This document shows positions 7,356 through 64,000 of a DNA stretch of 64,000 nucleotides, piece by piece. The notes beneath the pieces are model-generated. The model worked only from the letters and a program-made list of their open reading frames with translations, did not search any database and was not told where the DNA came from. Made by a program: the position numbers and the translations under genes. The stretch lies in assembly GCF_054482525.1 (NCBI RefSeq), contig NZ_CM137006.1. One strand, 5' to 3'. Position 1 is the stretch's first letter. Each line of letters begins with the position of its first letter.

Positions 7356-7366
7356 TACTATTCCTT

Positions 7367-9475
7367 TCAGGCTACGGTAATCAGCCAGCAGTTGTGGATC
7401 TGGCGGTTACGGGCGAAATCCTGGGAGAGCGTTTTTTGCGTAATTTCTTGTGCTTTCAGTCCCAGTTTTGCCAGGCCGTCGAGATCCATACGGAAGCCAC
7501 GTTTGTTGTTCGAGAACATGATCGTCCCACCTGCACGCAGCAGACGTTTCAGATCTTTCATCAGCGCCAGATGATCGCGCTGAACATCAAACGCATCTTC
7601 CATTCGTTTTGAGTTAGAGAAGGTTGGCGGATCGATAAAGATCAGATCGAACTGTTCATTTGCCTCACGCAGCCACGCCAGGCAATCGGCCTGAATCAGG
7701 CGATGCGCACGCCCGGTTAGGCCATTCAGACGCAGGTTGCGTTCTGCCCACTCCAGATAAGTACGCGACATATCCACGGTGGTGGTGCTGCGTGCACCGC
7801 CTAATCCCGCGTGCACGGTGGCGCTGCCGGTATAAGAGAACAGGTTGAGGAAATCTTTGCCTTTGCTCATCTGACCGAGCATACGACGGGCGATACGGTG
7901 ATCGAGGAACAGACCGGTATCGAGGTAATCCGTCAGGTTCACCCACAAGTGAGCGTTATATTCGGTAACTTCGAGAAACTCGCCCTTCTCGCCCAGTTTC
8001 TGGTACTGATTTTTGCCCTTCTGGCGTTCACGGGTTTTCAGCACCAGTTTGTTTGGCGCAATCCCCAATACCGAAATGGTTGCAGCGATAATATCGAACA
8101 GACGCTGACGCGCTTTGTGCGCATCAATAGTTTTTGGCGGCGCATACTCCTGCACCACCACCCAATCGGCGTAGCGGTCAACTGCAACGTTGTATTCCGG
8201 TAGATCGGCGTCGTACAGGCGGTAGCATTCAATGCCTTCCTGACGCGCCCACTTCTCGAATTTTTTGAGGTTCTTACGCAGACGGTTGGCGTAGTCTTCT
8301 GCCACCATTGCCGGTTTGCTGTCTGGTGTGCTTTCGGCAACGTGGTAATTTTTCTGCACGCAGTCTAATGGACCGTTTTTCGCTTTGTACTGTTTGTCTG
8401 CACGCAACTGCAGGCAACTTAACAGATCCGGCGAGGCACTGAATAAAGAGAGATTCCAGCCACCGAACTGGTTTTTCATGATTCGGCCCAGCAGACTATG
8501 CAGCGCAATCAGCGCCGGTTCGCTGTCCAGACGTTCACCGTATGGCGGGTTGCTCAACACTGTACCGTACGGCCCTTTCGGCAGCGGATTGGTCAGTTGC
8601 GCGACATCTTTCACCTCAAAGGTGATCAGTTCACCAATCCCCGCAAGACGGGCGTTAGTGCGCGCACGTTGAATCACCCGTGCGTCGCTGTCCGAACCGT
8701 AAAAATGAGAGCTATACTCAGCCAGGCCTTTACGGGCGCGAGTTTGCGCTTCCGCTTTCACTTCCTGCCAGATAGCTTCATCATGCTGCGCCCAGCCGCT
8801 AAAGCCCCAACGCCCACGGTGCAAGCCTGGTGCGCGATCGGTCGCCAGCATCGCCGCTTCAATCAGCAACGTACCGGAACCACACATCGGATCGAGCAGC
8901 GGTGTTCCTGGCTGCCAGCCGGATCGCATCACAATCGCGGCTGCCAGGGTTTCTTTGATCGGCGCAATACCAGCACGATCGCGATAGCCACGCAGATGTA
9001 AACCATCACCACTGAGATCAAGGGCGATACTGGCGGTTTCTTTATGCAGCCAGACGTTAACGCGGATATCCGGCGCATCGCGATCAACATTTGGACGCGG
9101 CAGATTTTTCCGCGTGAAAGCATCGACAATCGCGTCTTTCACTTTCATCGCACCGTACTGACTGTTGCGGATGGTGTCATTCAAACCACTGAAGTGGACA
9201 GCGAAGGTCGCGCCAGGATTAAACATCTCTGTCCAGTTGATCGCCTGAACACCGAGATAGAGGTCTAAATCGCTGTAAACCTTACACTCGCCCAGCGGCA
9301 ACATAATACGCGAGGCCAGGCGGCTCCACATCAGGCTCTGGTAAACAAGCCGTGTGTCGCCCTTGAAATGGACCCCACCCTGAACCACCTGGCATTCAAC
9401 GGCCCCCAGGTTTTCCAGTTCAGTTTTTAACAGCTCTTCCAGCCCACGGGCCGTACTGGCAAACAGAGAATTCAT
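7367..9475 (-). CDS. rlmL: Bifunctional 23S rRNA m2G2445/m7G2069 methyltransferase RlmKL
   Basis: ORF track, 702 aa; two SAM-methyltransferase regions; conserved position next to uup. Confidence 0.95.
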
Positions 9476-9718
9476 ATCGTCACTTTTACTCTAAGAGCCT
9501 ACCGCAGTAGGCGTAATTGTTGCAGTCAGTCTGGACATGGACAGCGCGGAGAAACCGGAGCGTACACAAGTACGTGAGGATTTCGAGCACTTCCCTGGGC
9601 CAAACTGACAAATAAAATAGCCTAATGGGACAGGCGCTAAGAAAATTGTTGCGCATTATAGCTAATAAGCGCGTCATGTCATAAAGTTGAGGGCTTATTT
9701 TCATTTGAGGACCGCACC

Positions 9719-10828
9719 GTGGCGACATTAACCCGGCTTTTTATTCATCCTGTTAAATCGATGCGCGGCATTGGTCTTACACATGCTCTGGCAGATGTCA
9801 GTGGTCTGGCCTTCGATCGCATCTTTATGATCACGGAACCTGACGGTACGTTTATTACCGCTCGCCAGTTTCCGCAAATGGTACGGTTTACTCCTTCACC
9901 TGTGCATGATGGCTTGCATCTCACCGCACCAGATGGCAGTAGCGCATATGTTCGTTTTGCTGATTTCGCCACACAAGACGCACCAACCGAAGTTTGGGGC
10001 ACACATTTTACCGCGCGAATTGCGCCAGACGCGATCAACAAATGGCTAAGTGGATATTTCTCCCGCGAAGTGCAGTTGCGCTGGGTGGGGCCACAAATGA
10101 CGCGGCGCGTGAAACGCCACAACACTGTACCCCTGTCATTTGCTGATGGCTATCCTTACCTTCTTGCTAACGAAGCCTCGTTACGTGATCTCCAACAACG
10201 TTGTCCGGCCAGTGTAAAAATGGAGCAATTCCGCCCTAATCTGGTGGTTTCCGGCGCGTCAGCCTGGGAAGAAGATAGCTGGAAAGTGATTCGTATTGGT
10301 GATGTGGTGTTTGATGTGGTTAAACCTTGTAGCCGCTGTATTTTCACCACCGTCAGCCCAGAAAAAGGGCAAAAACATCCGGCAGGCGAACCATTAAAAA
10401 CATTGCAATCTTTCCGCACTGCCCAGGATAACGGCGATGTCGATTTTGGCCAGAATTTAATTGCCCGTAATAGCGGCGTAATTCGCGTTGGCGATGAGGT
10501 GGAAATTCTGGCAACGGCTCCGGCTAAAATTTACGGCGCAGCCGCCGCTGATGATACCGTCAACATCACGCAACAACCGGACGCAAATGTAGATATTGAC
10601 TGGCAGGGACAGGCATTTCGTGGAAATAACCAGCAGGTGTTGCTGGAGCAATTAGAAAATCAGGGAATTCGTATCCCTTATTCTTGCCGCGCGGGCATTT
10701 GTGGAAGTTGCCGTGTTCAGCTTTTAGAAGGCGAAGTCACGCCGCTGAAAAAATCAGCAATGGGCGATGATGGCACCATTCTTTGCTGTAGCTGTGTACC
10801 GAAGACTGCGCTTAAGCTGACGCGTTAG
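9719..10828 (+). CDS. ycbX: MOSC-domain protein with C-terminal 2Fe-2S ferredoxin domain, YcbX
   Basis: ORF track, 369 aa, GTG start; C-terminal CRAGICGSC motif typical of plant-type ferredoxin. Confidence 0.9.
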
Positions 10829-11367
10829 ACTGCCTGTTCGAGGCTGAAGCTGTCAACATTAACCTGCGGTTTCAGCCTGTCGTTCATGATTTTGATGGCG
10901 TCGCCCAGCTGCATCGCGCGACCCGCAATAACAACGCAGGGTTGTGCCAGTAGGCATAGTGCGGCATTTTCGCCAGATTCAACGACCAGCAAATTGACTT
11001 GCTCGTGAGTGTCGCTCAACCAAACGCAGGCCGCATCGCCCGGCATGGGCACCCACATTTCACCATGGGAAACAAAATGCCAGCTTTTCGGCATTTGCGG
11101 TTTGAGATAACGAATTGCTACCAGCGCATTAAGCACCAGTTCGGCTTTTTGTTCTTTAGATAAATTAAAATCGCGGCATTTTTCTTCAAATGAGAAATAG
11201 AGCGCGGCGTCATCAACGCAAAAGCCTGCGGGAGAAAAGGCATCTGGAGTCAACATTTTGCGCGCAAAACGTGAGCGAAATAGCATACCATTGGCTAAAT
11301 CGAGCATCATTCGATCGTGCTCTTCATCGTAATACCAACGCCAGTTATCGTCTGGTTTAATTCGCAT
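10825..11367 (-). CDS. zapC: Cell-division protein ZapC (180 aa)
   Basis: ORF-track 10825..11403 trimmed to the conserved start [19 protein letters not shown]; 4-nt convergent overlap with ycbX. Confidence 0.85.
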
Positions 11368-11486
11368 TTGCCTCTCCCCTACCCTATAAAACCGCAGCAA
11401 CACAATCCATTGTCGCTTCGCTTAATAACCTCAACAATAAAAGTACAAAATGTCTAAATAAGCAACAGCGATGAATATAAAACAAC

Positions 11487-11512
11487 CAGGGCTGAAAATA
11501 AAGCCCTGATTA
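11487..11512 (-). terminator. Putative pyrD terminator hairpin
   Basis: 7-bp stem CAGGGCT/AGCCCTG with a following U-rich tract on the minus strand, about 30 nt past the pyrD stop. Confidence 0.45.
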
Positions 11513-11540
11513 TCTTATAAAGAGGAATTCGAAGAAATAA

Positions 11541-12551
11541 TTAGATATGGGTAACGATTTCTTTAATCAGCGGCGGACCTTTAAAAATAAAACCAGAATA
11601 AATTTGCACCAGTGAGGCCCCCGCAGCAATCTTTTCACGCGCAGCGATAACCGAGTCAATGCCGCCAACACCGATGATCGGTAAGCGACCGTTTAATTCC
11701 TGTGACAAGCGGCGAATAATTTCTGTGCTTTTTAACTGAAGCGGACGACCACTTAAGCCACCGGTTTGATCGCAATTTTTCATTCCCTGAACCAGAGAAC
11801 GATCGAGAGTGGTATTGGTTGCAATAACGCCATCAATATTATGGCGAACTAAACTATCGGCAACCTGGATCAATTCTTCTTCAGAAAGATCCGGCGCGAT
11901 CTTCACTGCGATCGGCACATATTTATGGTGCATCGCTTGCAAATCATTTTGCTTATTTTTAATCGCGGTTAAGAGATCATCCAGCGCTTCGCCATATTGC
12001 AGTGTGCGTAGTCCTGGGGTATTCGGCGATGAAATATTGATGGCGATATATCCCGCATAAGCATAGATTTTTTCCATACAAATCAGATAGTCATCTTTAC
12101 CCTGCTCCACCGGCGTATCTTTATTTTTGCCGATGTTAATACCCAGGACGCCATCATAATGGGCTTTTTTTACGTTCTCTACGAGGTTATCAACGCCAAG
12201 ATTATTAAAGCCCATACGGTTGATCAAACCTTCGGCATCTACCAGACGAAAGAGACGCGGCTTGTCATTACCTGGCTGTGGACGTGGCGTGACGGTACCG
12301 ATCTCGATCGATCCAAATCCCATCGCGCCTAACGCGTCAATGCACTCCCCGTCTTTATCAAGACCGGCTGCCAGACCAAGCGGATTTTTAAACGTCAGGC
12401 CCATGCAGTTAACAGGTTTCGCAGGCACTTTCTGCCGCACCAGTGCTTCAAACGGCGTTCCGGTAATGCGGCGTAATTGCTGAAAAGTAAACTCATGAGC
12501 GCGCTCTGGATCGAGCTGGAAAAGGGCTTTACGAACGAAGGGGTAGTACAT
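11541..12551 (-). CDS. pyrD: Dihydroorotate dehydrogenase (quinone) PyrD (336 aa)
   Basis: ORF-track 11541..12578 trimmed to the conserved start [11 protein letters not shown]; class 2 DHODH sequence. Confidence 0.95.
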
Positions 12552-12637
12552 GAACTCTCCTGGATTCCCGGTGTGCAAACCGGGGGCGTATTATGTGCGA
12601 GTTCGGACCAAAAGGGAATTGACCTGTGGCAAAAAAA

Positions 12638-12653
12638 GCGCAAACGTTTTCCG
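12638..12653. promoter_or_regulatory. PurR-box-like element upstream of pyrD (GCGCAAACGTTTTCCG)
   Basis: Good match to the PurR operator consensus ACGCAAACGTTTTCTT (recalled), about 90 nt upstream of the pyrD start. Confidence 0.45.
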
Positions 12654-12661
12654 AGCCTGTT

Positions 12662-13372
12662 TCAGAGCAGATTTTGCTCCTTCTTTGCACTCAACCCGCC
12701 GTAATCATTTATCGTCCGCCAGGAGACATGACACGGTGCTATTGCCTGACACCAGCTTGTCTGACGCTGGCTTTTAGGTGGCACAACTCCCGCATTACTT
12801 AACGCTTTACCATTTACGCTCACCTGAATCAGGTTAATGTAGTAAGGCGTTGGGTTAGTGAGTTGTACACCCTGCGAATTCCGTGTCCAGCGTAATTGTT
12901 GATAAGCTTCCAGCGGGTCGCCCGGCAAACCTTCGGGTCGCCAGAACAGTTTAAATACCGAGCGCATCGCCACTTTTACGCTCTGATTTTCAACTTTGCC
13001 GGATGGCACGCTGGCAATGCTTAACTCAAATAGCGTTTCGCGATCCACAGGCAAGATGTCGCTTTCCGTTCTCAGCAAGCGCAACGTGCCTGTAGTACCG
13101 GGCTTCAGGAGAACAAGTGGTGGAGCGACCAGTAGTGGTGCTGACCCTGTCGATGCTTCGCCCCCGGCCCAACGCGTTGGGCGATTGATTTTACTGTTAA
13201 TAAGCCAGGATTCCTGACTGGTATTAGTCAGTGAAATAGATATCGATTCTCTGTCTGCCGGGAAGATAAATCGCGTTCCGCCAACCACCACTCCTGCCTG
13301 CAATTCCCCCGCCACCAGCAGCGATAAAACGGCAAAAATCGCGAGCGTCAATCTGTTCCACGTATTAGTCAT
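12662..13372 (-). CDS. ycbF: Periplasmic fimbrial chaperone YcbF (PapD-like)
   Basis: ORF-track 12662..13399 trimmed to MTNTWNRLTL (236 aa); last gene of the elf chaperone-usher cluster. Confidence 0.8.
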   Translation of the reverse strand: MTNTWNRLTLAIFAVLSLLVAGELQAGVVVGGTRFIFPADRESISISLTNTSQESWLINSKINRPTRWAGGEASTGSAPLLVAPPLVLLKPGTTGTLRLLRTESDILPVDRETLFELSIASVPSGKVENQSVKVAMRSVFKLFWRPEGLPGDPLEAYQQLRWTRNSQGVQLTNPTPYYINLIQVSVNGKALSNAGVVPPKSQRQTSWCQAIAPCHVSWRTINDYGGLSAKKEQNLL

Positions 13373-13880
13373 AATGAAGTACAAATGTCGCGCTGGCATT
13401 CACTTTACCCGACTGCACATCGCTATTAACAGGTCGCAATTGCGCATAAAAAGTTAATGGCACCTTACCGCTATGTAGGCTGTAGTCTTTACTCGCCTGG
13501 TTAAGCGGAATCAATATTTTCGCATCATCCAGAATCGCAATTGCCAGCCCACTGGCTGCATCCGTACCACTTTCAATGGACAGCATTTCGCTCTGCATTC
13601 CGTCGGGTGTTCCTGAAAAGGTAACGTCAACCGTGCTGACATCTGTTCCGCAATCCTGCAAATTAATGATGAAAGATTTCTCCGGGCCATAGTTCCCATG
13701 AGAAAAACGTGTCAGCGAGACATCGCCTAACTGCACATTGATTTGCTTGCTATCCTGTGCCAGCACGCATGTATTACGGCGAAACGATCCGCTAATGTTG
13801 ACCGTGCCATCATGGGCAAATAGCTCACAACCCCCCGTTAATCCCAGTAAGAACAGAATCCAGATTATCCGTTTCAACAT
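13365..13880 (-). CDS. ycbV: Fimbrial-like subunit YcbV
   Basis: ORF-track 13365..13928 trimmed to MLKRIIWILFLLGL (171 aa); signal peptide; 8-nt overlap with ycbF start. Confidence 0.75.
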   Translation of the reverse strand: MLKRIIWILFLLGLTGGCELFAHDGTVNISGSFRRNTCVLAQDSKQINVQLGDVSLTRFSHGNYGPEKSFIINLQDCGTDVSTVDVTFSGTPDGMQSEMLSIESGTDAASGLAIAILDDAKILIPLNQASKDYSLHSGKVPLTFYAQLRPVNSDVQSGKVNASATFVLHYD

Positions 13881-13887
13881 CACTCCT

Positions 13888-14430
13888 TCACTGGTAAACC
13901 AGATCAAAATAGAGAACCGCCGTCGCATTACCGCCCGTTGCTCCCGCCTTTGTGGACTTATAACGAAGTTGATATTTGAGTGTGTTATCCCCGGCTTTTA
14001 AGGGCGTAAGAGGCTGGACCTGATTGAGCGGGATTTCTTGCTGACTTTGCGCATCAAGAATTTGCACGGCAATCCCCGTTGCCATACCACCGCTTCCGCC
14101 TGTGTCAGTTAGTTTGAGCAGTGTCGGCGCAAGGGTGTCAGCCTCGCCGCTAAAAAGGACGTCCGCGCCAGTAATACCAGCGGCACAACCGGTGATATCG
14201 ATATTCAAATCAGCAGCAGTGCTTACGGTATTCGCGGCCTGAAAATCACTGATATTAAAATCACCAATATGAATATTTTGTAATGCACTTTTGGTGGCGA
14301 CATCACAGCCCTGATCGACCACATTCCCATAAATATGCATACTAACTTGTTCAGGCCCAGCCATCCCGACATGGGTGTTAAGAAAGCTAAAGAACAAGAT
14401 AACGTACTGAAATATTGTTTTTTTCTTCAT
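13888..14430 (-). CDS. ycbU: Fimbrial-like subunit YcbU
   Basis: ORF track, 180 aa; signal peptide; C-terminal pilin-like tail (AVLYFDLVYQ). Confidence 0.8.
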   Translation of the reverse strand: MKKKTIFQYVILFFSFLNTHVGMAGPEQVSMHIYGNVVDQGCDVATKSALQNIHIGDFNISDFQAANTVSTAADLNIDITGCAAGITGADVLFSGEADTLAPTLLKLTDTGGSGGMATGIAVQILDAQSQQEIPLNQVQPLTPLKAGDNTLKYQLRYKSTKAGATGGNATAVLYFDLVYQ

Positions 14431-14441
14431 ACGTTCACGCG

Positions 14442-18103
<3,662 letters not shown>

Positions 18104-24313: not shown

Positions 24314-24835
24314 ATGAAACATTCATTTGAAGTAAAACTTGCCGCTGTAAATCACTACCTGGCTGGTCATGCAGGCATCATTTCTACGGCAAAACTCTTT
24401 CAACTTTCTCACACCAGCCTCTCACACTGGATTAATCTTTTTCTTCTTCACGGTCCTCGGGCACTGGATTGCAGACACAAGCGTAGCTATTCTCCTGAAG
24501 ATAAACTTTGCGTGGTTCTTTATGCTCTCGGGCATTCTGAGTCTCTACCCCGGGTAGCTGCCCGGTTTAACATTCCCAGCCACAACACGGTTAAAAACTG
24601 GATAAAAGGCTACCGCAAATCTGGTAATGAGGCCTTTATCAGGCGCAGGAAGGAGAAAAGCATGACCCGTTCTGATGATACCCATGAAAACGAGGCAAAC
24701 ATGACGCCGGAAGAGATGAAGAATGAGCTGCGTTATCTTCGCGCAGAAAATGCATATCTGAAAGCCATGCAGGAGCATCTCCTGGAAAAAAAGCGCCAGG
24801 AGCTGGAGAAAAAACGAAAGTCATCCGGAGCCTGA
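24314..24835 (+). CDS. IS3-family transposase OrfA (helix-turn-helix and leucine-zipper part)
   Basis: ORF-track 24305..24835 (GTG) with likely ATG at 24314 (MKHSFEVKL) preceded by AGGTG; ends just after the slippery heptamer A-AAA-AAG at 24787-24793. Confidence 0.85.
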   Translation: MKHSFEVKLAAVNHYLAGHAGIISTAKLFQLSHTSLSHWINLFLLHGPRALDCRHKRSYSPEDKLCVVLYALGHSESLPRVAARFNIPSHNTVKNWIKGYRKSGNEAFIRRRKEKSMTRSDDTHENEANMTPEEMKNELRYLRAENAYLKAMQEHLLEKKRQELEKKRKSSGA

Positions 24836-24939
24836 GGTGCGGACACTGCCAGTCTGACCTGTTAAAGGCTGCAGGGCTGGCCAGAAGCACGCTGTACTAC
24901 CAGCTGTCACTGCAGAAGGCTAAGGACAAGTATGCTGAT

Positions 24940-25694
<755 letters not shown>

Positions 25695-31982: not shown

Positions 31983-33056
31983 ATGATGAAGCGCAATATT
32001 CTGGCAGTGATCGTCCCTGCTCTGTTAGTAGCAGGTACTGCAAACGCTGCAGAAATCTATAACAAAGATGGCAACAAAGTAGATCTGTACGGTAAAGCTG
32101 TCGGTCTGCATTATTTTTCTAAAGACAATGGTGTAAACAGTTACGGCGGAAACGGCGACAAAACTTATGCCCGTCTTGGTTTTAAAGGGGAAACACAAAT
32201 CAATTCCGATCTGACCGGCTACGGTCAGTGGGAATATAACTTCCAGGGTAACAACTCTGAAGGCGCTGATGCCCAGAAAGGTAACAAAACTCGTCTGGCA
32301 TTCGCAGGTCTGAAATTCGCTGATGCGGGTTCTATCGACTACGGTCGTAACTACGGTGTGGTTTACGACGCACTGGGTTACACCGATATGCTGCCTGAGT
32401 TTGGCGGTGACACGGCATACAGCGATGACTTCTTCGTTGGTCGTGTAGGCGGCGTTGCTACCTATCGTAACTCCAACTTCTTCGGTCTGGTTGACGGCCT
32501 GAACTTTGCCGTTCAGTACCTGGGCAAAAACGAACGTGCTGGTATTCCTGAGCGTTCCAACGGCGACGGCGTCGGTGGCTCTATCAGCTACGAATTCGAA
32601 GGCTTTGGTATCGTAGGTGCTTACGGTGCAGCAGACCGTACCGACGCCCAGGAAGCCGAATTCCGCGGTCAGGGTAAAAAAGCTGAACAGTGGGCAACTG
32701 GTCTGAAGTATGACGCGAACAACATCTACCTGGCAGCGAACTACGGTGAAACCCGTAACGCTACGCCAATTGAAGGCGGCTTCGCCAACAAAACGCAAGA
32801 CGTTCTGTTAGTTGCGCAATACCAGTTCGATTTCGGTCTGCGTCCGTCCATCGCTTACACCAAATCTAAAGCGAAAGACGTAGAAGGTATCGGTGATGTT
32901 GATCTGGTGAACTACTTTGAAGTGGGCGCAACCTACTACTTCAACAAAAACATGTCCACCTATGTTGACTACATCATCAACCAGATCGATTCTGACAACA
33001 AACTGGGCGTAGGTTCTGACGACACCGTTGCAGTGGGTATCGTTTACCAGTTCTAA
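31983..33056 (+). CDS. ompF: Outer-membrane porin OmpF (357 aa, loop-variant allele)
   Basis: ORF track; signal peptide [22 protein letters not shown], mature N-terminus [11 protein letters not shown]-terminal VYQF; differs from remembered K-12 OmpF (362 aa) mainly in predicted external loops. Confidence 0.95.
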
Positions 33057-49425: not shown

Positions 49426-50412
49426 CTAGTTGCCAGAAGCCAGCGAGGTTAGTTGCGCAAGCAGTTTCGCTGGTTCATCACCTGAAAGCTGTGCGTCTAC
49501 AGGCAAATACCACCAATTTTCTTCTGCAAAGGCCCGGCATTTAACCGCATCTTTTTCAGTCATTACCAGCGTTTGCCCGTCGTTTACCAACGCGCTGACA
49601 TCCGCATGGTTCAAAGACTGATGATCGGCCAGCGGTACACATTTTTCCGGTTGTACGCCGCACATCTTCAGCGTGGCAAAAAAGCGCGGCGGATGTCCAA
49701 TCCCCGCCATCGCCACTACATGTTCAAGCTGAGCAACGTCACAACGCGTACCGGTACGTAAATTCACCGCCTGACCCGGCAGCAGATGCATGGGGATTTC
49801 ACCGCTGCGGGGGACACCGCCGTTGACGATTACCGCATCAACCGACTTTAAGCGCCCCGCTCGCTCACGCATTGGCCCCGCCGGCAACCACCAACCATTG
49901 CCAAAGCGACGCACACCATCAATAACGACAATTTCCACATCACGCGCCAGACGGTAATGCTGTAAACCGTCGTCGGTTACGATGATCTGCACATCAGGGT
50001 GTTGCGCCAGAATGGCTTTTACCGCATCAGAACGCACGGGAGAAACCGCAACGGGCGCGCCAGTGCGTTGATAAATCAACACTGGTTCATCACCCGCCTG
50101 TGCTGTGGTGGTATCTGCCGACAATAACAGCGGATAAGATTCAGCCTTACCACCATATCCCCGCGATACGACCCCCACGCGAATACCGCGCTGTTGCAAC
50201 TGTTCCACCAGCCAGACAACGACCGGGGTTTTTCCGTTGCCGCCTGCGGTGAGATTACCAACCACGACAACCGGTACGGGGGCAAGCCAGGCGCGCTTCA
50301 GTTTTAGTTTATAGCAAAGACGGATCGCGCCACTCACCAGGCCATACAACCAGGAGAGTGGCAGCAATAGCCGCCACAAAGGGGATTCACCAGACCAGAT
50401 TTTTTCGATCAT
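49426..50412 (-). CDS. lpxK: Tetraacyldisaccharide 4'-kinase LpxK
   Basis: ORF track, 328 aa; P-loop [12 protein letters not shown]; ATGA overlap with msbA stop. Confidence 0.9.
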
Positions 50413-52157
50413 TGGCCAAACTGCATTTTGTGAAGTTGCGCGTAAACGCCACGGTGCTCAAGCAAATCGTTATGCGTACCGCGTTCCACAATGACACCAT
50501 CCTCGACGACCACGATTTCGTCTGCCTTTTCAATGGTAGACAAGCGGTGGGCAATCACCAGAGAGGTACGGTTTTTCTGCAACTCATCCAGTGCCGCCTG
50601 AATCGCACGTTCGGATTCGGTATCCAACGCCGAGGTAGCTTCGTCCAGAATCAGAATCGGGCTATCACGCAACAAGGCTCGAGCGATAGCAATACGCTGA
50701 CGCTGACCGCCAGAGAGCAGCACGCCGTTTTCACCAATCACTGTATCGAGACCGTTATCCATCTTATTGATGAAGTCCATGGCGTAGGCCATACGCGCCG
50801 CTTCTTCAATTTGCTCACGGCTGTACTGTTCAGTCCGTGCGTAAGCAATGTTGTTAGCAACCGTATCGTTAAACAGATGGACATTCTGCGACACCAGAGC
50901 AACCTGGTTACGTAACGACGCCAGGGTATACTCGCGCAGATCGTGACCATCCATCAGGATTTCGCCTTCATCAATATCGTAAAAACGCGTGATCAGGCTG
51001 GCGATGGTTGATTTACCTGAACCAGAGCGTCCAACCAGAGCAACCGTCTTCCCTGCCGGAATTTTCAGGTTGATGTTACGCAATGCGGGTACGTCACGTC
51101 CCGGATAAGTAAAGGTGACGTTGCGGAATTCCACGTCACCAGTCGCACGCTCGATCACGCGCTTACCTTCGTCTTTCTCCTGCTCACTGTCCAGAATGGT
51201 AAACAGCGTCTGACAAGCCGCCATACCGCGCTGGAACTGGGCGTTAACGTTGGTCAGCGATTTCAGTGGACGCATCAGTGCAATCATTGAAGAGAAAACA
51301 ACGGTAATCGTACCGGCAGTCAGGTTATCCATAACACTTGGGAAGCTCGCCGCATACAGAACAAACGCCAGCGCCAAAGAGGCGATCAGCTGAATGATCG
51401 GATCAGAGATGGAAGAGGCTGAAACCATTTTCATCCCCTGAAGACGCATTCGGTTACTGACTTTATCGAAGCGTTTCGTTTCCACTTCCTGACCACCGAA
51501 AATCAATACTTCTTTGTGGCCCTTCAGCATTTGTTCTGCGCTGGTGGTCACCTGCCCCATGGTGTTCTGCATGTTTTTACTGATGTTGCGAAAACGCTTC
51601 GATACAACGCGAATCGCAATCGAAACAATCGGTGCCAGCACAATCAAAATGATCGACAGTTGCCAACTGTAATAAAACATCATGATGAACAGGCCGATGA
51701 TCGACGCACCTTCACGCACAACAGTAATCAGTGCGCCGGAAGAAGAAGAAGCAACCTGTTCGGAATCGTAAGTGATACGTGACAACAGCGTACCCGTTGA
51801 CTGTTTGTCAAAAAATGAAACAGGCATTCCCATCATGTGACCAAACAGGCGGCGACGCATAGTCATTACCACCTTTCCTGATACCCAGGAGATACAGTAG
51901 CTGGAGACATAGCTGGTGATACCACGTAAAATCATCAGCCCGATCACCACCAGCGGCATCCACACCAGCACGGAGCGATCTGTTTTACCAAAGCCATCAT
52001 CAAGAAGTGGCTTAAGGAGCGATAACATGAAGGTATCGCTGGCTGCGTTGAGGATTAACGCTACGCCCGCCACGATCAGACCCGCTTTAAAAGGCGCAAT
52101 GGTTGGCCACAGTCGGCGGAACGTCTGCCACGTAGAGAGATCTTTGTCGTTATGCAT
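50409..52157 (-). CDS. msbA: Lipid A flippase ABC transporter MsbA
   Basis: ORF track, 582 aa; six-TM domain, Walker [10 protein letters not shown], signature LSGGQRQR. Confidence 0.95.
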
Positions 52158-52193
52158 TCAAAAAACCAGCATTTGTTGAAATAGCCGCATATT

Positions 52194-54458
52194 CTACCCG
52201 TTATCCACTGGCACGCCAAACCACTGATGATACCAACGAGGTAAAATTTGCTCCCTGAGGCTGCTAATCCGCCAGCCTTGCGCTGAAAAATTGACCGTTA
52301 TTTGACCCTGATGAGGAGTATCAAGCCACTTATAACCCTGTTGTTGATAGCGATGTTTAACTTTGCTTGAGGGCAGTCGCCATGCGTTGTAGCGCGATGC
52401 CGATGTGAGTGCCACTTTTCCATTCACTCGCTGAATTAATGGCAACGATGATGAGGTATTACTGCCATGGTGAGGTATCTGAAGTAATGTTGCCTGCATT
52501 TGCTGCCAGTAACGGCTTAGCATCTTTTGTTCAGCGGGGGCTTCAATATCACCGGTTAGAAGAATGCTATTCGTCCCGTCATCAACCTTAACCACACAGG
52601 AATGGTTATTTCCTTTATCGTTGCTACCTTGTAAAGGCCAGTGCGCGCTGAAACGCAATCCTTGCCATTGCCACGCTTCGCCACGCACACAGGGCTGATG
52701 ATGTTCCCAGTTTAACGGACTTCTGATCCATAACATCGGCCATGTATGCAATATTGAGTCCAGCCCTCCCCGGTGATCCAGATGTTCATGACTCAGAATA
52801 ACGCCTTCCGGTTCAAGATTATGCCAGTGGAGCCAGGGGATAATCAGTTGTTGCCCACTATCTCCTTCAGGCCAGGCCAGTCCCGTGTCATAGAGAATCG
52901 CTTTGCCGTTTCTGGCTATCACCATTGCCAGCCCTTGCCCGACATCAAGCATGTACACTTGCCACTCGTCAGGTCGAGGTTTTTGCCACAGCGGCCAGCA
53001 CATCAGCAAGCCTCCAGCCACACACATTGCTGGCAACGTTCGCCAGGCGTTTAATCGCCATACCACCAGTAAGAACCATGGGGAAAATGATAGCCATTGC
53101 CAACGTTCAGCAATGTTGATCCACCCTTCCGGCAAACTCTTTAACCCCCAGAAAAGTAAAGCCAAAGACCGGTCGGCAAGAAAGCATAACCCCTGTTCCA
53201 GGATTAACGGCCCGCTTAAATGCACAACCATCGCGGCGAGGATTAATGGAACCGTGATAAATGTCACCAGGGGAATTGCAAAAAGATTTGCAATAAACGA
53301 GGTCAGACTAATGCCATGAAATATGACGATTTGCACGGGCATAAGCAGGAGTGTGATTCCCAGTTGCAGATGGATGAGGGAAACAACCGCACGCAATACC
53401 GGCGGCAGCTGCCACTCAGGACAGGGAAACCACTGATACCAAAAAATCAGTGCCGCGACCGCAGCGGCAGAGAGCCATAAACTTTGCGAGAGAATGGCAA
53501 CAGGATCCATCAGCAAAATTGCCGCCAGACAACATATCCACACATCCCAGCCACTCCATTGTCGCCCACTTAACTTAAGCATTCCCCACATGGCAAGCGC
53601 CACCACGGTACGCAATGCAGGAGGTTGCATCCCAGTCAGCCAGGCATAAAAAGCAGCACAGCAGATTCCGCCAATTAATGGCATTTGCCAGTGGATCCAG
53701 CGCCCAGGCAGAAAAACTTGCCCACCGCGAATGAGTCCGGCAGCCAGCAACGCCGCAAAAGCGATATGCAATCCCGATATCGCCATTAAATGCGCCGTTC
53801 CAGTATCGCGCATGATATTTTTGATTTCTTTAGGGACGGATAACCGTTCCCCCATACCTAAACCAAGAATAACCGCATTCCACATATAGGGTTGCAGCGT
53901 TGTTTGTAGTGACGCCAGATACTGTGCACGCAGGCTACAATTCGGTTCAATGACACTTGCCTGCAGAAGACGGCCGGTGAGCGGCTGATGCTGGGCAATG
54001 GCATAACGCTGGCTATCAAAGCCGCCATCATTAAGTTGGCCATGAACTGCACGAACTTTGAGTTTCATTGACCATTGTTGTCCAGCACAAACCGCTTGCG
54101 GAAGATATTCGCCATACAGCACGAGGCCTGGCGCAGGGAATAAACGTCGACCTTGTAGATGAGTAATTTGACCGTAATGAGTGGTCATACCGTCAGTAGC
54201 AGTGATCTCAACAATTGCATCCTGCGTCGCGCCAGTTAAGGTTTCTCCTGCCCACAAAATTTGCTTTGCTGCTAATATGCCCCAAACGAAAAACAGCAAC
54301 GTCAGCGCGATATAACGGACAGTTTTAAAAGGGATAAATACCAGTACGCAGGCGAAGACAGTCAGAAACGCAAGGGTTAATGTCCCAGGCAATTGGGGCA
54401 AAACCAGCAACGGAAAAATTCCGCAAATTATGCATACGCCGACTGTCGTTATTTTCAT
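52194..54458 (-). CDS. ycaI: ComEC/Rec2-family inner-membrane protein YcaI (754 aa)
   Basis: ORF-track 52194..54536 trimmed to MKITTVGVCIICG, preceded by GGGAGGGG ribosome-binding site; polytopic membrane domain plus C-terminal metallo-beta-lactamase motif HEHLDHRGG. Confidence 0.85.
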   Translation of the reverse strand: MKITTVGVCIICGIFPLLVLPQLPGTLTLAFLTVFACVLVFIPFKTVRYIALTLLFFVWGILAAKQILWAGETLTGATQDAIVEITATDGMTTHYGQITHLQGRRLFPAPGLVLYGEYLPQAVCAGQQWSMKLKVRAVHGQLNDGGFDSQRYAIAQHQPLTGRLLQASVIEPNCSLRAQYLASLQTTLQPYMWNAVILGLGMGERLSVPKEIKNIMRDTGTAHLMAISGLHIAFAALLAAGLIRGGQVFLPGRWIHWQMPLIGGICCAAFYAWLTGMQPPALRTVVALAMWGMLKLSGRQWSGWDVWICCLAAILLMDPVAILSQSLWLSAAAVAALIFWYQWFPCPEWQLPPVLRAVVSLIHLQLGITLLLMPVQIVIFHGISLTSFIANLFAIPLVTFITVPLILAAMVVHLSGPLILEQGLCFLADRSLALLFWGLKSLPEGWINIAERWQWLSFSPWFLLVVWRLNAWRTLPAMCVAGGLLMCWPLWQKPRPDEWQVYMLDVGQGLAMVIARNGKAILYDTGLAWPEGDSGQQLIIPWLHWHNLEPEGVILSHEHLDHRGGLDSILHTWPMLWIRSPLNWEHHQPCVRGEAWQWQGLRFSAHWPLQGSNDKGNNHSCVVKVDDGTNSILLTGDIEAPAEQKMLSRYWQQMQATLLQIPHHGSNTSSSLPLIQRVNGKVALTSASRYNAWRLPSSKVKHRYQQQGYKWLDTPHQGQITVNFSAQGWRISSLREQILPRWYHQWFGVPVDNG

Positions 54459-60035: not shown

Positions 60036-61124
60036 TTAGCCGTGACGGCGTTCGAACTCAACCATGAAGTCTGTCAGCGCTTTAACGCCTTCCAGCGGCA
60101 TGGCGTTATAAATAGACGCGCGCATTCCGCCGACCACACGGTGACCTTTCAGCGCATGAAGGCCAGCAGCAAAAGACTCTTCAAGGAACAATTTGTCAAG
60201 CGCACTGTCCGCCAACTGGAACGGCACGTTCATCCGCGAACGGTTAGCTTTCGCCACGTCATTGCGGTAGAAATCGCTGTTATCAATCACCCCATACAGC
60301 AGTTCTGCTTTTTGCTGATTGATTTTATCCATTGCAGCTACACCGCCGTTCGCTTTCAGCCATTTAAAGACCAGACCAGACAGATACCAGGCAAATGTCG
60401 GCGGCGTGTTAAACATGGAGTCGTTATCGTTGAGAATGGAATAATCCAGAATCGACGGACACGCGATATTCGCTTTGCCCAGCAAATCTTCACGAACGAT
60501 GACGATTGTCAGGCCAGCCGGGCCGATATTTTTCTGCGCGCCAGCGTAAATTACACCATAACGGCTGACGTCAATCGGACGGGAAAGAATGGTTGAAGAG
60601 AAGTCGGCGGCGACCACCACATCTTTGCCGAAGTCTGGCGTTTCGTCGATAGCGATACCGTCGATGGTTTCATTCGGGCAGTAATGCATATAAGCAGCAT
60701 TATCAGAGAGTTGCCATTCGCGCATTGGCTTAACCGCGCGCAGACCATCAACAGTCACTTTGGCGTCGAAGACATTAGGCGTGCAGTATTTTTTCGCTTC
60801 TTTAATGGCACTTGCCGCCCAGTAACCGGCATCAACATAATCTGCGGTGGTTTTATCACCGAGAATATTCAGCGGAACAGCAGCAAACTGACCGCGACCG
60901 CCGCCATGGCAGAACAATACTTTGTAGTTGGAGGGGATGTTAAGAAGATCGCGAAAATCCTTCTCGGCTTCCTCTGCAACCTGAATGAACTCTTTGCCAC
61001 GGTGACTCACTTCCATCACCGACGTACCAAGACCGTTCCAGTCGCGCAGTTCCTGTTGAGCCTGTTTAAGCACCTCTGCCGGTAGCATTGCCGGACCAGA
61101 ACTAAAATTGAAGATTTGAGCCAT
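60036..61124 (-). CDS. serC: Phosphoserine aminotransferase SerC
   Basis: ORF track, 362 aa; starts [15 protein letters not shown]. Confidence 0.95.
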
Positions 61125-61322
61125 TTCCCCTCACCACGTTGCGTTGCTATTAACCCGCGGTCAATCGATTGCGACCACAGGTAATACATTATTCCTGTGG
61201 CTATCGGTTTTATCATTCAGTGACACACATCGCAATGAGTAAAACCGTTGAGGGCAAAAATGTGGCTTGCATCACACAAAAGAATCTCTCGGATTATTAG
61301 CAAAAAGCCGATGTTTTTACTG

Positions 61323-62015
61323 TCAGGTCACCCGTTTTGCCCGACTTGCCTTCGTCCATTCTGGATTTGCACAGCGCGGACATAATTGTTTTTCCCCCGC
61401 TTTCATATGAATGATTTCACTACAACGAATACAGGCATAGTCCGCCGACTCGGGTACCACTTTGTAACGCTGCGTACAATCACTGGGTAAAATAAGTAAA
61501 CCCGGTTTCACCTTGTCATCTTCAAAGAAATAGACACTGATTTGCCCGTTGGTTTCGAGAATCGCCAGACGTACCTGCCCCAGCTGCTCCACGCCACGCA
61601 ATCGTAGCTCCATAAAGAACTCAAATTCCGTCATGTTGGAGTTATTGAGTTTCGACCAGGCCAGCTCGCCATCTTCAATAATGACAACTGGCTTGCCTTC
61701 CAGAAGATCTTCCAGTTTTTCACTGTGCGCCATCAACCACATTACCAGGCGGTATAACAACGCCAGAGTAATAAAGACGATAAGTACCGGGACCATCGGC
61801 ACATCATCATAAAACGCCACATCTCCCGCCGCTGATCCCAGCGTCAGAATGATTAAAACTTCAAACAGCGACATCTGCCGCACACCGCGTCTTCCGGTCA
61901 TTTTGAGGAACAAAAAGACCAGTACAAAGGTATAAAGACTACGTAGTGCAACTTCGCCAAGGAAATCAAAAGGCACTTTATCAAATGCCATACGGTGGAG
62001 ATCGAACGCCTTCAT
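61323..62015 (-). CDS. ycaP: DUF421-family inner-membrane protein YcaP
   Basis: ORF track, 230 aa; N-terminal TM helices; C-terminal CxxC...CxxC pairs. Confidence 0.8.
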   Translation of the reverse strand: MKAFDLHRMAFDKVPFDFLGEVALRSLYTFVLVFLFLKMTGRRGVRQMSLFEVLIILTLGSAAGDVAFYDDVPMVPVLIVFITLALLYRLVMWLMAHSEKLEDLLEGKPVVIIEDGELAWSKLNNSNMTEFEFFMELRLRGVEQLGQVRLAILETNGQISVYFFEDDKVKPGLLILPSDCTQRYKVVPESADYACIRCSEIIHMKAGEKQLCPRCANPEWTKASRAKRVT

Positions 62016-62144
62016 TTTTATGCTCTTAACGTGGTTTATCCGCTAAAAGCATAGTCAACAGTTCATCGGCATGGCGGCGGTGATAGCGCCTTTGAGATAA
62101 AACCCGTATTATTGCGCGCTTTCCGTACGACTAAAGTGATTTTC

Positions 62145-63905
62145 ATGACGCAAACATTTATCCCCGGCAAAGATGCCGCTCTGGAAGATTCCATCGCTCG
62201 CTTCCAGCAAAAACTTTCAGACCTCGGCTTTCAGATTGAAGAGGCCTCCTGGCTGAATCCCGTGCCTAACGTCTGGTCTGTACATATTCGCGACAAAGAG
62301 TGCGCACTGTGTTTTACCAACGGTAAAGGCGCAACCAAAAAAGCGGCGCTGGCTTCTGCACTCGGTGAATATTTCGAGCGTCTGTCTACCAACTACTTTT
62401 TTGCTGACTTCTGGCTGGGCGAAACCATCGCCAACAGTCCATTCGTGCATTATCCCAACGAAAAATGGTTCCCACTGACCGAAAACGACGATGTACCAGA
62501 AGGGCTGCTCGATGACCGTCTGCGCGCATTTTACGATCCGGAGAATGAACTGACCGGCAGCATGCTGATTGACCTGCAATCCGGTAACGAAGATCGTGGT
62601 ATTTGCGGTCTGCCGTTTACGCGTCAGTCCGACAATCAGATCGTTTATATTCCGATGAATATCATTGGTAACCTGTACGTTTCTAACGGTATGTCCGCTG
62701 GCAATACCCGAAACGAAGCACGCGTTCAGGGGTTGTCCGAAGTTTTCGAACGCTACGTGAAAAACCGCATTATTGCTGAAAGCATCAGCTTGCCGGAAAT
62801 CCCGGCAGACGTGCTGGCGCGTTACCCAGCGGTGGTTGAAGCCATCGAAACGCTGGAAGCAGAAGGTTTCCCAATCTTTGCTTATGATGGTTCGCTTGGC
62901 GGCCAGTATCCGGTGATTTGCGTGGTACTGTTCAATCCTGCTAACGGTACCTGCTTTGCCTCTTTCGGTGCGCATCCTGATTTTGGCGTAGCACTGGAAC
63001 GTACCGTGACCGAGCTGCTGCAAGGTCGTGGCCTGAAAGATTTGGATGTGTTTACTCCGCCAACCTTCGATGATGAAGAAGTTGCTGAACATACCAACCT
63101 CGAAACGCACTTTATCGATTCCAGCGGTTTAATCTCCTGGGACCTGTTCAAGCAGGATGCCGATTATCCGTTTGTGGACTGGAATTTCTCCGGCACTACG
63201 GAAGAAGAGTTTGCTACGCTGATGGCTATCTTCAACAAAGAAGATAAAGAAGTTTATATTGCCGATTACGAGCATCTGGGCGTTTATGCTTGCCGAATTA
63301 TCGTGCCTGGCATGTCCGATATTTATCCGGCTGAAGATCTGTGGCTGGCGAATAACAGTATGGGCAGCCATTTACGTGAAACGATTCTTTCGTTACCAGG
63401 CAGCGAGTGGGAAAAAGAAGATTACCTGAACCTCATCGAGCAACTGGATGAAGAAGGTTTTGATGACTTTACCCGCGTGCGTGAGCTGTTGGGTCTGGCG
63501 ACCGGGTCGGATAACGGTTGGTACACCCTGCGTATCGGTGAATTAAAAGCCATGCTGGCGCTGGCTGGTGGCGATCTGGAACAGGCTCTGGTCTGGACCG
63601 AATGGACGATGGAGTTTAACTCATCAGTATTTAGTCCGGAACGCGCCAACTATTATCGCTGCCTGCAAACGTTGTTATTACTGGCGCAGGAAGAAGATCG
63701 CCAGCCGCTGCAATATTTGAATGCGTTTGTTCGCATGTACGGCGCAGATGCCGTGGAAGCCGCCAGTGCGGCAATGAGCGGCGAAGCGGCGTTTTATGGC
63801 TTGCAACCAGTAGATAGCGATCTGCACGCGTTTGCTGCACATCAGTCGTTGTTGAAGGCCTACGAAAAGCTGCAGCGCGCCAAAGCAGCATTCTGGGCAA
63901 AATAA
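62145..63905 (+). CDS. ycaO: YcaO-domain protein (586 aa)
   Basis: ORF-track 62112..63905 trimmed to MTQTFIPGKDAALEDSIARF; divergent from ycaP. Confidence 0.9.
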   Translation: MTQTFIPGKDAALEDSIARFQQKLSDLGFQIEEASWLNPVPNVWSVHIRDKECALCFTNGKGATKKAALASALGEYFERLSTNYFFADFWLGETIANSPFVHYPNEKWFPLTENDDVPEGLLDDRLRAFYDPENELTGSMLIDLQSGNEDRGICGLPFTRQSDNQIVYIPMNIIGNLYVSNGMSAGNTRNEARVQGLSEVFERYVKNRIIAESISLPEIPADVLARYPAVVEAIETLEAEGFPIFAYDGSLGGQYPVICVVLFNPANGTCFASFGAHPDFGVALERTVTELLQGRGLKDLDVFTPPTFDDEEVAEHTNLETHFIDSSGLISWDLFKQDADYPFVDWNFSGTTEEEFATLMAIFNKEDKEVYIADYEHLGVYACRIIVPGMSDIYPAEDLWLANNSMGSHLRETILSLPGSEWEKEDYLNLIEQLDEEGFDDFTRVRELLGLATGSDNGWYTLRIGELKAMLALAGGDLEQALVWTEWTMEFNSSVFSPERANYYRCLQTLLLLAQEEDRQPLQYLNAFVRMYGADAVEAASAAMSGEAAFYGLQPVDSDLHAFAAHQSLLKAYEKLQRAKAAFWAK

Positions 63906-63912
63906 AATCAAA

Positions 63913-63982
63913 TAGCCTACGCAATGTAGGCTTAATGATTCGTCTGAGTTATATTACGGGGCGTTTTTTTAATGCCCCGCTT
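63913..63982 (+). terminator. Hairpin structures downstream of ycaO (putative terminator)
   Basis: Stem AGCCTAC/GTAGGCT at 63913-63934 and GC stem CGGGGC/GCCCCG around a T-rich tract at 63957-63982; geometry not classical. Confidence 0.35.
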
Positions 63983-64000
63983 TACATATATTTGCATTAA

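Follow-up and report, generated by a model that had tools for sequence, protein, structure and literature searches.

The gene at 62145-63905 of the window (by which we mean the whole 64,000-nucleotide stretch of contig NZ_CM137006.1 analyzed here) is ycaO, an ordinary, well-studied and already known gene of the E. coli core genome, and its product is very probably a thioamidase of ribosomal protein uL16 whose substrate is encoded far away. The uL16-modifying YcaO is the second known protein-backbone thioamidating enzyme, after the methanogen MCR enzyme. The name "S12 methylthiotransferase accessory factor" found in databases is obsolete, and the gene matters mainly as a correction: when a YcaO gene has no nearby precursor, a protein substrate encoded elsewhere should be sought, and the missing precursor is not a sign of a non-catalytic role.

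An intact ycaO gene of the E. coli core genome

The open frame extends from a TTG codon at 62112 to 63905 on the plus strand, and from the in-frame ATG at 62145 (MTQTFIPGKD...) it encodes an intact YcaO protein of 586 amino acids followed by a stop codon (Table 1). The RefSeq ycaO of E. coli PCN033 (9146-10906 of that locus, L001) maps onto exactly these positions; window positions 61000-64000 are 100% identical to PCN033, and this 3-kb region was matched in 5425 of 5426 complete E. coli genomes. The NCBIfam equivalog NF040716 ("YcaO_for_S12") scores 915.5 bits against the window protein, above its cutoff of 700, and covers residues 4-577, while the crystal structures PDB 4Q84, 4Q85 and 4Q86 align with residues 1-586 at 1351 bits. 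These are structures of E. coli K-12 YcaO (b0905, UniProt P75838), with which the window protein shares 584 of 586 residues (99.7%); the genes differ at 43 of 1761 nucleotides. The only substitutions relative to K-12, G98S and T166I, look conservative, and neither falls among the residues that we checked.

Table 1. Features in and around ycaO, in window coordinates
Feature	Coordinates	Strand	Basis
ycaP, DUF421/YetF-family membrane protein	61323..62015	-	Pfam PF04239 and PF20730
ycaP-ycaO divergent intergenic spacer, 129 bp	62016..62144	.	Sequence; small ORFs without Shine-Dalgarno, not Cys/Ser/Thr-rich
ycaO CDS, very probably an ATP-dependent uL16 Met82 backbone thioamidase	62145..63905	+	ORF, RefSeq annotation of the identical PCN033 sequence, NF040716, full-length PDB 4Q84 match
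YcaO ATP/Mg-binding catalytic domain, aa 59-391	62319..63317	+	Pfam PF02624, E 1.2e-74
YcaO_C C-terminal helical (TPR-like) domain, aa 407-581	63363..63887	+	Pfam PF18381, E 2.5e-65
First stem-loop past the ycaO stop codon, 7-bp stem AGCCUAC/GUAGGCU	63914..63932	+	Fold
G+C-rich stem-loop, 9 bp, CGGGGCGUU/AAUGCCCCG, then U-rich tract	63957..63979	+	Fold, sequence

The residues K9, S71, E75, E78, N187, E199, E202, R203 and R286, which we take from the crystal-structure paper to form the ATP/Mg site of the E. coli enzyme (EcYcaO), are all the same in the window protein and in K-12. In an alignment of 16 YcaO orthologs reaching down to 39% identity, E202, R203 and R286 are invariant and the other six are at least 90% conserved. 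E202 was mutated by Rice et al. as a catalytic residue of EcYcaO (PMC13063428), and all 12 uL16-interface residues mutated by the same authors are unchanged in the window protein. Members of the EcYcaO group have a TPR-like YcaO_C domain spanning about 150-175 residues, as does the window protein. YcaO_C has been described as mediating dimerization and possibly contributing to uL16 binding (PMC13063428). The window protein is strongly acidic, with a calculated pI of 4.38 and 92 Asp and Glu residues against 42 Lys and Arg; the published pI of EcYcaO, 4.4, is unusually low and complementary to basic uL16 (PMC13063428). With its checked residues intact, its acidic pI and no partner genes beside it, the window protein is essentially the same enzyme as K-12 YcaO, whose gene has the same domains and the same neighbors (ycaP, serC and focA-pflB).

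Thioamidation of uL16 Met82

A thioamide at Met82 of uL16 was first observed in PMC7550191, and Rice et al. (2026) established that EcYcaO installs it in the protein backbone both in vivo and in vitro (PMC13063428). Deletion of ycaO yields ribosomes lacking the Met82 thioamide, and modification is complete when uL16 is co-expressed with YcaO (PMC13063428). The reaction in vitro requires ATP, MgCl2 and Na2S, the last a non-physiological source of sulfide, and the substrate is folded full-length uL16, bound via the acidic surface of the enzyme; peptides are not accepted (PMC13063428). A proteome-wide AlphaFold3 scan returned uL16, uL29 and YcaO itself as the only confident YcaO interactors (PMC13063428). 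The activity has been demonstrated for K-12/BW25113 and BL21, and the Klebsiella pneumoniae and Pseudomonas aeruginosa orthologs likewise thioamidate uL16 (PMC13063428). The Kd of EcYcaO for uL16 is about 10 nM. A ycaO deletion strain grows normally in LB and M9.

Because the window protein is 99.7% identical to K-12 YcaO, we expect the same activity in the window strain, in which uL16 Met82 would also be thioamidated. YcaO would work there as a homodimeric, strongly acidic, ATP-grasp-like enzyme on free folded uL16, the product of rplP. Basic uL16 would dock onto the acidic YcaO surface, and its loop of residues 70-93 would enter the active site; a sulfide equivalent would then attack the backbone carbonyl of Met82, ATP would phosphorylate the resulting oxyanion, and elimination of phosphate would leave a Met82-Gly83 thioamide, which would finally lie beside the peptidyl-transferase center. 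Modification would precede ribosome assembly, and the sulfur would come from a donor of primary metabolism. On the K-12 chromosome the two genes are far apart, rplP at 3.449 Mb and ycaO at 0.955 Mb, and we found no uL16 homolog or rplP gene in the window. Nor did we find any sequence evidence in the window that contradicts uL16 thioamidation as the function of this gene.

The link to ribosomal protein S12

A different role is still carried by the RefSeq, NCBIfam and PDB names, namely that the main function of YcaO is to aid RimO, as an accessory factor, in the beta-methylthiolation of uS12 Asp88. Its basis is that YcaO co-purified with tagged uS12 and that deleting ycaO lowered uS12 methylthiolation from 99% to 84% (both summarized in PMC13063428). 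Against this, RimO alone modifies a uS12 peptide analog in vitro, deletion of rimO abolishes the uS12 modification, and AlphaFold3 gives non-confident ipTM values of 0.31 for YcaO-uS12 and 0.16 for YcaO-RimO, compared with 0.8 for YcaO-uL16 (PMC13063428). Further, the annotation tables, which cover the window apart from roughly 50000-53000 (~3 kb), list neither rimO nor rpsL. We therefore consider a primary role in S12 modification very unlikely; the link is a weak inference of 2011 that lives on in database names.

A sequence-only reading of this DNA had tied the housekeeping role of the gene to a reported link with S12 modification, a link now superseded by the demonstrated thioamidation of uL16 Met82 (PMC13063428). 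It had also set the backbone modifications catalyzed by YcaO enzymes elsewhere against a housekeeping role here. The two are not opposed: the gene product performs the usual YcaO backbone chemistry on a folded ribosomal protein that is encoded far away. What stood of the reading was its picture of a standalone housekeeping gene outside any RiPP cluster, and the flanking DNA bears this out.

Flanking genes and small open reading frames

The ycaP and ycaO genes diverge across a spacer that presumably holds the promoters of both and contains no credible small gene; serC and aroA are also in the neighborhood, and focA-pflB-pflA lie on the plus strand just beyond the window end, so that ycaO is, as had been proposed, divergent from ycaP and upstream of the formate region. 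Genes for an E1-like/RRE protein or an FMN dehydrogenase were found neither in the ycaO flanks nor in the annotation of the window, and the flanks hold no tfuA either. We scanned the equivalent of window positions 61000-64400 in six frames for small open reading frames of 15-120 amino acids and obtained 59. None of the 13 that are mostly intergenic has a Shine-Dalgarno-like motif or at least 35% Cys+Ser+Thr. Four others that are Cys/Ser/Thr-rich or contain at least four Cys were set aside, being contained entirely, or nearly so, within ycaO or ycaP in alternative frames. A 398-codon frame that starts at 63972 and runs in phase into focA was rejected as a chance frame because it is poorly preserved, with 325 codons left in a second E. 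coli and 285 in the majority of genera. The 3.4 kb around ycaO gave no Rfam match at E values up to 1, and YcaO and YcaP match no defense system in PADLOC.

Two hairpins follow the ycaO stop codon. The segment 63903-63995 folds with -30.4 kcal/mol (z = -4.2 relative to shuffled sequences), and the second, G+C-rich stem-loop is the probable ycaO terminator, setting the gene apart from focA-pflB. A consensus promoter and terminator scan, whose counts were at or under shuffle expectation and which was uninformative overall, also flagged the first stem-loop as terminator-like on the minus strand.

Conservation of the neighborhood across relatives

Across 77 orthologous ycaO loci from 45 genus-level groups, no adjacent gene and no small open reading frame is conserved beyond one order, and neither a conserved precursor-like frame nor a partner gene stands beside ycaO. 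From the spacers that flank ycaO in the 77 loci we clustered 840 small ORFs, and the multi-genus clusters fall solely in the AT-rich focA promoter/leader DNA of Enterobacterales; these are not Cys/Ser/Thr-rich, a Shine-Dalgarno-like motif is present in few or none of their members, and we read them as conserved regulatory DNA and not as genes. When the 1113 ORFs surrounding ycaO in 80 loci were clustered de novo, no partner shared across orders emerged, and in none of 80 related loci does tfuA lie beside ycaO. We also rejected ycaP as a partner; it stands upstream of ycaO in only 20 of 43 Enterobacterales loci, and other orders lack it at that position. Elsewhere the adjoining genes encode an asparaginase, a methyltransferase, glyoxalase II, DUF3360, TPR, TetR, DUF4282 and DUF1508 proteins and a CysK-like enzyme.

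In 42 of 44 Enterobacterales loci, focA and pflB are found no more than 4 kb downstream of ycaO, and pflB is also downstream in two of three Aeromonadales loci, in Zophobihabitans and in both Vibrionaceae loci, in which focA is replaced by the gene of a DUF3360 protein, a synteny of ycaO, focA and pfl already remarked on by Watson et al. (PMC7550191). This adjacency might point to a second function or substrate linked to anaerobiosis, for example in formate/PFL metabolism or in the availability of sulfide under anoxic conditions. The linkage is missing, however, in Pasteurellales (0 of 9 loci), Gilliamella, Shewanella and Pseudoalteromonas, and strong hairpins separate ycaO from focA. In addition, focA-pfl is reportedly transcribed independently (cited in PMC7550191), the uL16 thioamide was found in aerobically grown cells (PMC7550191), and the confident AlphaFold3 interactors named above are confined to uL16, uL29 and YcaO itself (PMC13063428). 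A second, anaerobic role is accordingly a highly improbable reading of the synteny.

Comparison with RiPP cyclodehydratases and the methanogen enzyme

In azoline-forming YcaO cyclodehydratases of RiPP pathways (TOMM), the C-terminus is Pro-rich and carries a PxPxP motif, the adjacent precursor gene is a short ORF whose core is usually rich in Cys, Ser and Thr, and an E1-like/RRE docking protein and an FMN dehydrogenase are encoded next to the enzyme or fused to it. EcYcaO has in common with such enzymes (SagD/McbD/LynD, TIGR03604) the YcaO ATP-binding fold and the phosphorylation of a backbone oxygen followed by elimination; the nucleophile is external sulfide for EcYcaO and a Cys, Ser or Thr side chain for TOMM YcaOs. 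Unlike these, the window gene is accompanied by neither a precursor gene nor genes for an E1-like/RRE partner or an FMN dehydrogenase, and its product has no PxPxP (P.P.P) anywhere, the C-terminus reading ...KLQRAKAAFWAK. That the protein is a cryptic RiPP maturase, with precursor and partners unannotated nearby or encoded elsewhere, is extremely unlikely: membership in the YcaO superfamily and weak similarity to SagD- and McrA-type models would favor it, but the models score far below cutoff (43.8 bits against 219.25 for TIGR03604, SagD family; 38.7 against 365 for TIGR03266, methan_mark_1), the 13 mostly intergenic small ORFs lack precursor features, no small-ORF family is conserved outside Enterobacterales, the neighbors are all housekeeping genes, and EcYcaO rejects peptides and requires folded uL16 (PMC13063428).

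The nearest functional parallel to a uL16 thioamidase is the methanogen YcaO (TIGR03266; for example MJ1094, PDB 6PE3), which makes the thioglycine of McrA, shares ATP-dependent amide activation with EcYcaO, and is the only other characterized YcaO that thioamidates a protein backbone (PMC13063428). The two differ in substrate, in that the methanogen enzyme accepts short McrA peptides whereas EcYcaO requires folded uL16 (PMC13063428). They also differ in sequence: the 385-residue chain of 6PE3 matches the ATP-binding core of the window protein weakly (E 0.0011, query residues 180-306 only), and nothing in it aligned to YcaO_C.

Sulfur supply and OsmC-YcaO fusions

Away from high-sulfide environments, YcaOs that form thioamides tend to rely on TfuA and a ThiS-like carrier, and E. 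coli has no TfuA homolog (PMC13063428). One improbable route is that a thiol protein of the OsmC family, free-standing in E. coli and fused to YcaO in Bacteriovoracales, supplies YcaOs of the uL16 type with their sulfur or gives a sulfide or persulfide redox protection; the old linkage of ycaO to pflB could reflect coupling to an anaerobic, sulfide-rich physiology. We found no cysteine column at 90% conservation in the alignment of 16 YcaO orthologs. The closest relatives of the window protein outside the gammaproteobacteria are OsmC-YcaO fusions (TIGR03549), which are abundant in Bacteriovoracales/Halobacteriovorax. Their YcaO and YcaO_C part, which is likewise acidic (pI 4.72), shares about 54% identity with the window protein over its full length. 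They differ by an additional N-terminal OsmC domain of about 145 amino acids, absent from the window protein, which scores 682.6 bits against TIGR03549, under the cutoff of 900. The three cysteines of the fused OsmC domain are invariant in all 117 of 117 sequences.

Identity and conservation of YcaO

The ycaO gene lies at window positions 62145-63905, an assignment far beyond chance, as the six-frame ORF list, Pfam, the NCBIfam equivalog NF040716 (915.5 bits against a cutoff of 700), structures 4Q84, 4Q85 and 4Q86 (aligned across all 586 residues) and RefSeq annotation all agree. The annotation is that of E. coli PCN033, which is 100% identical over window 61000-64000 and whose ycaO falls exactly on these positions; the same interval matches 5425 of 5426 complete E. 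coli genomes. These results confirm the sequence-only reading as to the gene and its start, and the domain search it proposed recovers both YcaO domains. This is already a known gene with a solved structure and assigned biochemistry.

Features of the window and of related loci
Feature	Sequence	Coordinates	Strand	Remarks
Open frame containing ycaO	Window	62112 (TTG)-63905	+	Six-frame ORF list
ycaO	Window	62145-63905	+	In-frame ATG start; MTQTFIPGKD..., 586 residues
YcaO ATP/Mg-binding domain	YcaO	aa 59-391	+	Pfam, E 1.2e-74
YcaO_C domain	YcaO	aa 407-581	+	Pfam, E 2.5e-65
ycaP (DUF421/YetF)	Window	61323-62015	-	
G+C-rich 9-bp stem, then U-rich tract	Window	63957-63979		Fold
Open frame upstream of focA	Window; L001 (PCN033 ycaO locus)	63972-64000; onward at 10973-12169		
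ompF-like gene	Window	31983-33056	+	Uninterrupted, 357 codons
IS1397	Window	about 24314-25662		Mapped from PCN033 record 1088722-1090070
OsmC-YcaO-YcaO_C fusion P0123	L005 (homologue locus)	6001-8190		OsmC N-terminal
pflB-linked loci of Enterovibrio and Grimontia	L080, L081	about 9740-15000		DUF3360 protein in place of focA

Compared with K-12 YcaO (b0905), the window protein has two residue differences, G98S and T166I. At the nucleotide level 43 of 1761 positions differ, a sign of purifying selection. All nine ATP/Mg-site residues examined (K9, S71, E75, E78, N187, E199, E202, R203 and R286) are the same as in K-12; across 16 aligned sequences, with identities as low as 39%, each of these columns is either invariant or conserved to at least 90%. 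Rice et al. mutated 12 interface residues, and these are likewise unchanged. The computed pI of 4.38 matches the value of 4.4 by which these authors mark out the enzymes that modify uL16 (Rice et al., 2026; PMC13063428).

The ycaO locus lacks RiPP partner genes

As the sequence-only reading had it, ycaO is divergent from ycaP and stands upstream of formate-metabolism genes. The PCN033 annotation shows the latter to be focA, pflB and pflA, co-oriented with ycaO, and places serC, aroA and ycaL beyond ycaP; the window's remaining annotated genes are all named ones with housekeeping, fimbrial or transport functions. Neither these nor the ycaO neighbors include an E1-like/ThiF protein, an RRE, a nitroreductase-type dehydrogenase or TfuA. 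A scripted scan of every 15-120 aa ORF from position 61000 to about 64400 yielded 13 mostly intergenic small ORFs, none of them preceded by a Shine-Dalgarno-like motif or enriched in Cys/Ser/Thr. Four further ORFs flagged as Cys/Ser/Thr-rich or holding at least four Cys are alternative frames wholly or almost wholly within ycaO or ycaP. There is no Rfam match at the locus, YcaO scores well below cutoff with the RiPP-type models TIGR03604 (43.8 vs 219) and TIGR03266 (38.7 vs 365), and the PxPxP motif occurs nowhere in the protein. The claim that ycaO stands alone, with no precursor, docking or dehydrogenase partner, is thereby borne out.

In the 93 nt past the ycaO stop, three hairpins are predicted (-30.4 kcal/mol; z = -4.2 vs shuffles), one of them the 9-bp G+C-rich stem at 63957-63979 with its U-rich tract. 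This is in keeping with a report that focA-pflB is transcribed independently (Watson et al., 2020; PMC7550191); simple consensus scans for transcription signals were uninformative. In the strain of the window, the focA frame has no stop over the 113 codons preceding its annotated start, across the AT-rich promoter region. We rejected a real coding extension because frame length is not conserved between genomes (it is 325 codons in another E. coli and 285 in most genera); the open frame is probably due to chance. The C-terminus of the DUF421/YetF membrane protein YcaP carries a CxxC...CxxC arrangement (ACIRCSEIIHMKAGEKQLCPRCANPEW) resembling a zinc ribbon.

YcaO probably acts on uL16 rather than S12

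A thioamide at Met82-Gly83 of uL16 was seen in a 2.0 Å ribosome map, and YcaO was proposed as the candidate enzyme (Watson et al., 2020; PMC7550191). AlphaFold3 modeling of YcaO against all 4,403 E. coli proteins gave only uL16, uL29 and YcaO itself as confident partners, and uL16 alone placed a loop in the active site; the Met82 thioamide is missing from ribosomes when ycaO is deleted, and YcaO co-expression takes it to completion (Rice et al., 2026; PMC13063428). Purified MBP-YcaO thioamidated full-length uL16 only with Na2S, MgCl2 and ATP, did not accept 11-mer or 21-mer peptides or GluC-digested uL16, and the YcaO-uL16 Kd is 9.8 nM; K. pneumoniae and P. aeruginosa orthologues have the same activity (Rice et al., 2026; PMC13063428). 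The sequence-only reading had instead favored a housekeeping role linked to S12. That annotation goes back to a co-purification and a modification shift from 99% to 84%; RimO by itself suffices for uS12 modification in vitro, and YcaO models with uS12 and with RimO are not confident (Rice et al., 2026; PMC13063428). The housekeeping, non-RiPP part of the reading therefore stands, and the S12 role is superseded by uL16 Met82 thioamidation.

The uL16 gene was not found in the window by tblastn; its K-12 position is 3.449 Mb, against 0.955 Mb for ycaO. Together with the literature on uL16, this suggests that ycaO, judged from its 99.7% identity to the K-12 protein, carries out ordinary YcaO chemistry on a distantly encoded substrate. 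Sulfide would be the nucleophile attacking the backbone amide of uL16, ATP would then O-phosphorylate the attacked amide, and phosphate would be eliminated last; the substrate would be a ribosomal protein in its folded state, whose gene lies elsewhere in the genome and which is recognized by electrostatic complementarity.

Neighborhoods of related ycaO loci

We took one genome per species, giving 80 loci from Enterobacterales, Aeromonadales, Pasteurellales, Orbales, Vibrionales, Alteromonadales and a few metagenome-assembled genomes, called and clustered ORFs at each, and mapped the E. coli neighbors onto them. Among Enterobacterales, serC is upstream of ycaO at 42 of 43 loci, ycaP at only 20 of 43, and focA and pflB are downstream at 42 of 44. 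The ycaO-pflB-pflA adjacency is also found beyond this order, for instance in Aeromonas (L053-L056): pflB is downstream at two of three Aeromonadales loci and at both Vibrionaceae loci, where a 522-aa DUF3360 membrane protein replaces focA, and Zophobihabitans (Orbales; L063) has both focA and pflB. The linkage is absent from Pasteurellales (0/9), Gilliamella, Shewanella and Pseudoalteromonas; a functional link behind the adjacency is unlikely.

Outside Enterobacteriaceae, the immediate neighbors are an unrelated mix (asparaginase, class-I methyltransferase, glyoxalase II, a TPR protein, a TetR regulator, DUF4282, DUF1508, a shikimate-dehydrogenase-like protein and a CysK-like enzyme), and more distant homologues (50-54% identity) on three contigs have different contexts again. 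When 840 small ORFs from ycaO-flanking spacers at 77 loci were clustered, multi-genus clusters were confined to the AT-rich focA promoter/leader region of Enterobacterales; these are not Cys/Ser/Thr-rich, and few or no members have a Shine-Dalgarno-like motif. The search for a conserved small precursor-like ORF or adjacent partner enzyme, either of which would contradict a standalone gene, found none in the flanks or at the related loci. The distribution of ycaP is patchy among Enterobacterales: an asparaginase gene replaces it in Yersinia, Photorhabdus, Edwardsiella and Budvicia, and Serratia and Hafnia have both, with asparaginase adjoining ycaO.

OsmC-YcaO fusions and sulfur supply

E. coli lacks TfuA (Rice et al., 2026; PMC13063428). 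Since no cysteine column attains 90% conservation in the 16-sequence orthologue alignment, the sulfur probably comes from a donor other than YcaO. An exhaustive representative search with an E-value limit of 0.001 returned 2667 YcaO homologues; of the close full-length ones, most are acidic. So are OsmC-YcaO fusions, which share about 54% identity with E. coli YcaO (54% for P0123 against the window protein). This TIGR03549 architecture is abundant in Bacteriovoracales and Halobacteriovorax, outside Pseudomonadota (P0271-P0389), and Cys50, Cys59 and Cys112 of its OsmC part are invariant in 117/117 sequences. OsmC goes unmentioned in the main text of Rice et al. (2026; PMC13063428), and within the literature searched no paper naming both OsmC and YcaO appears to be devoted to the fusion. 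The fusion may offer a hint as to where uL16-type thioamidation gets its sulfur or redox supply, a lead and not a finding; that an OsmC-family protein actually supplies sulfur, or redox protection, to uL16-type YcaO we regard as very improbable.

Relationship of the window to PCN033

Over its first 50 kb the window is collinear with PCN033, with 6 mismatches, which makes the source of the window a very close relative; across about 61 kb there are 7 SNPs. At position 32244 the window has C, whereas PCN033, a strain otherwise near-identical, has T; this creates an internal stop at codon 88 of the ompF-like gene, which is annotated as a pseudogene in PCN033. The window thus derives from a close PCN033 relative and not from PCN033 itself. 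IS1397, an IS3-family element whose transposase has a programmed frameshift, sits between pepN and ssuB.
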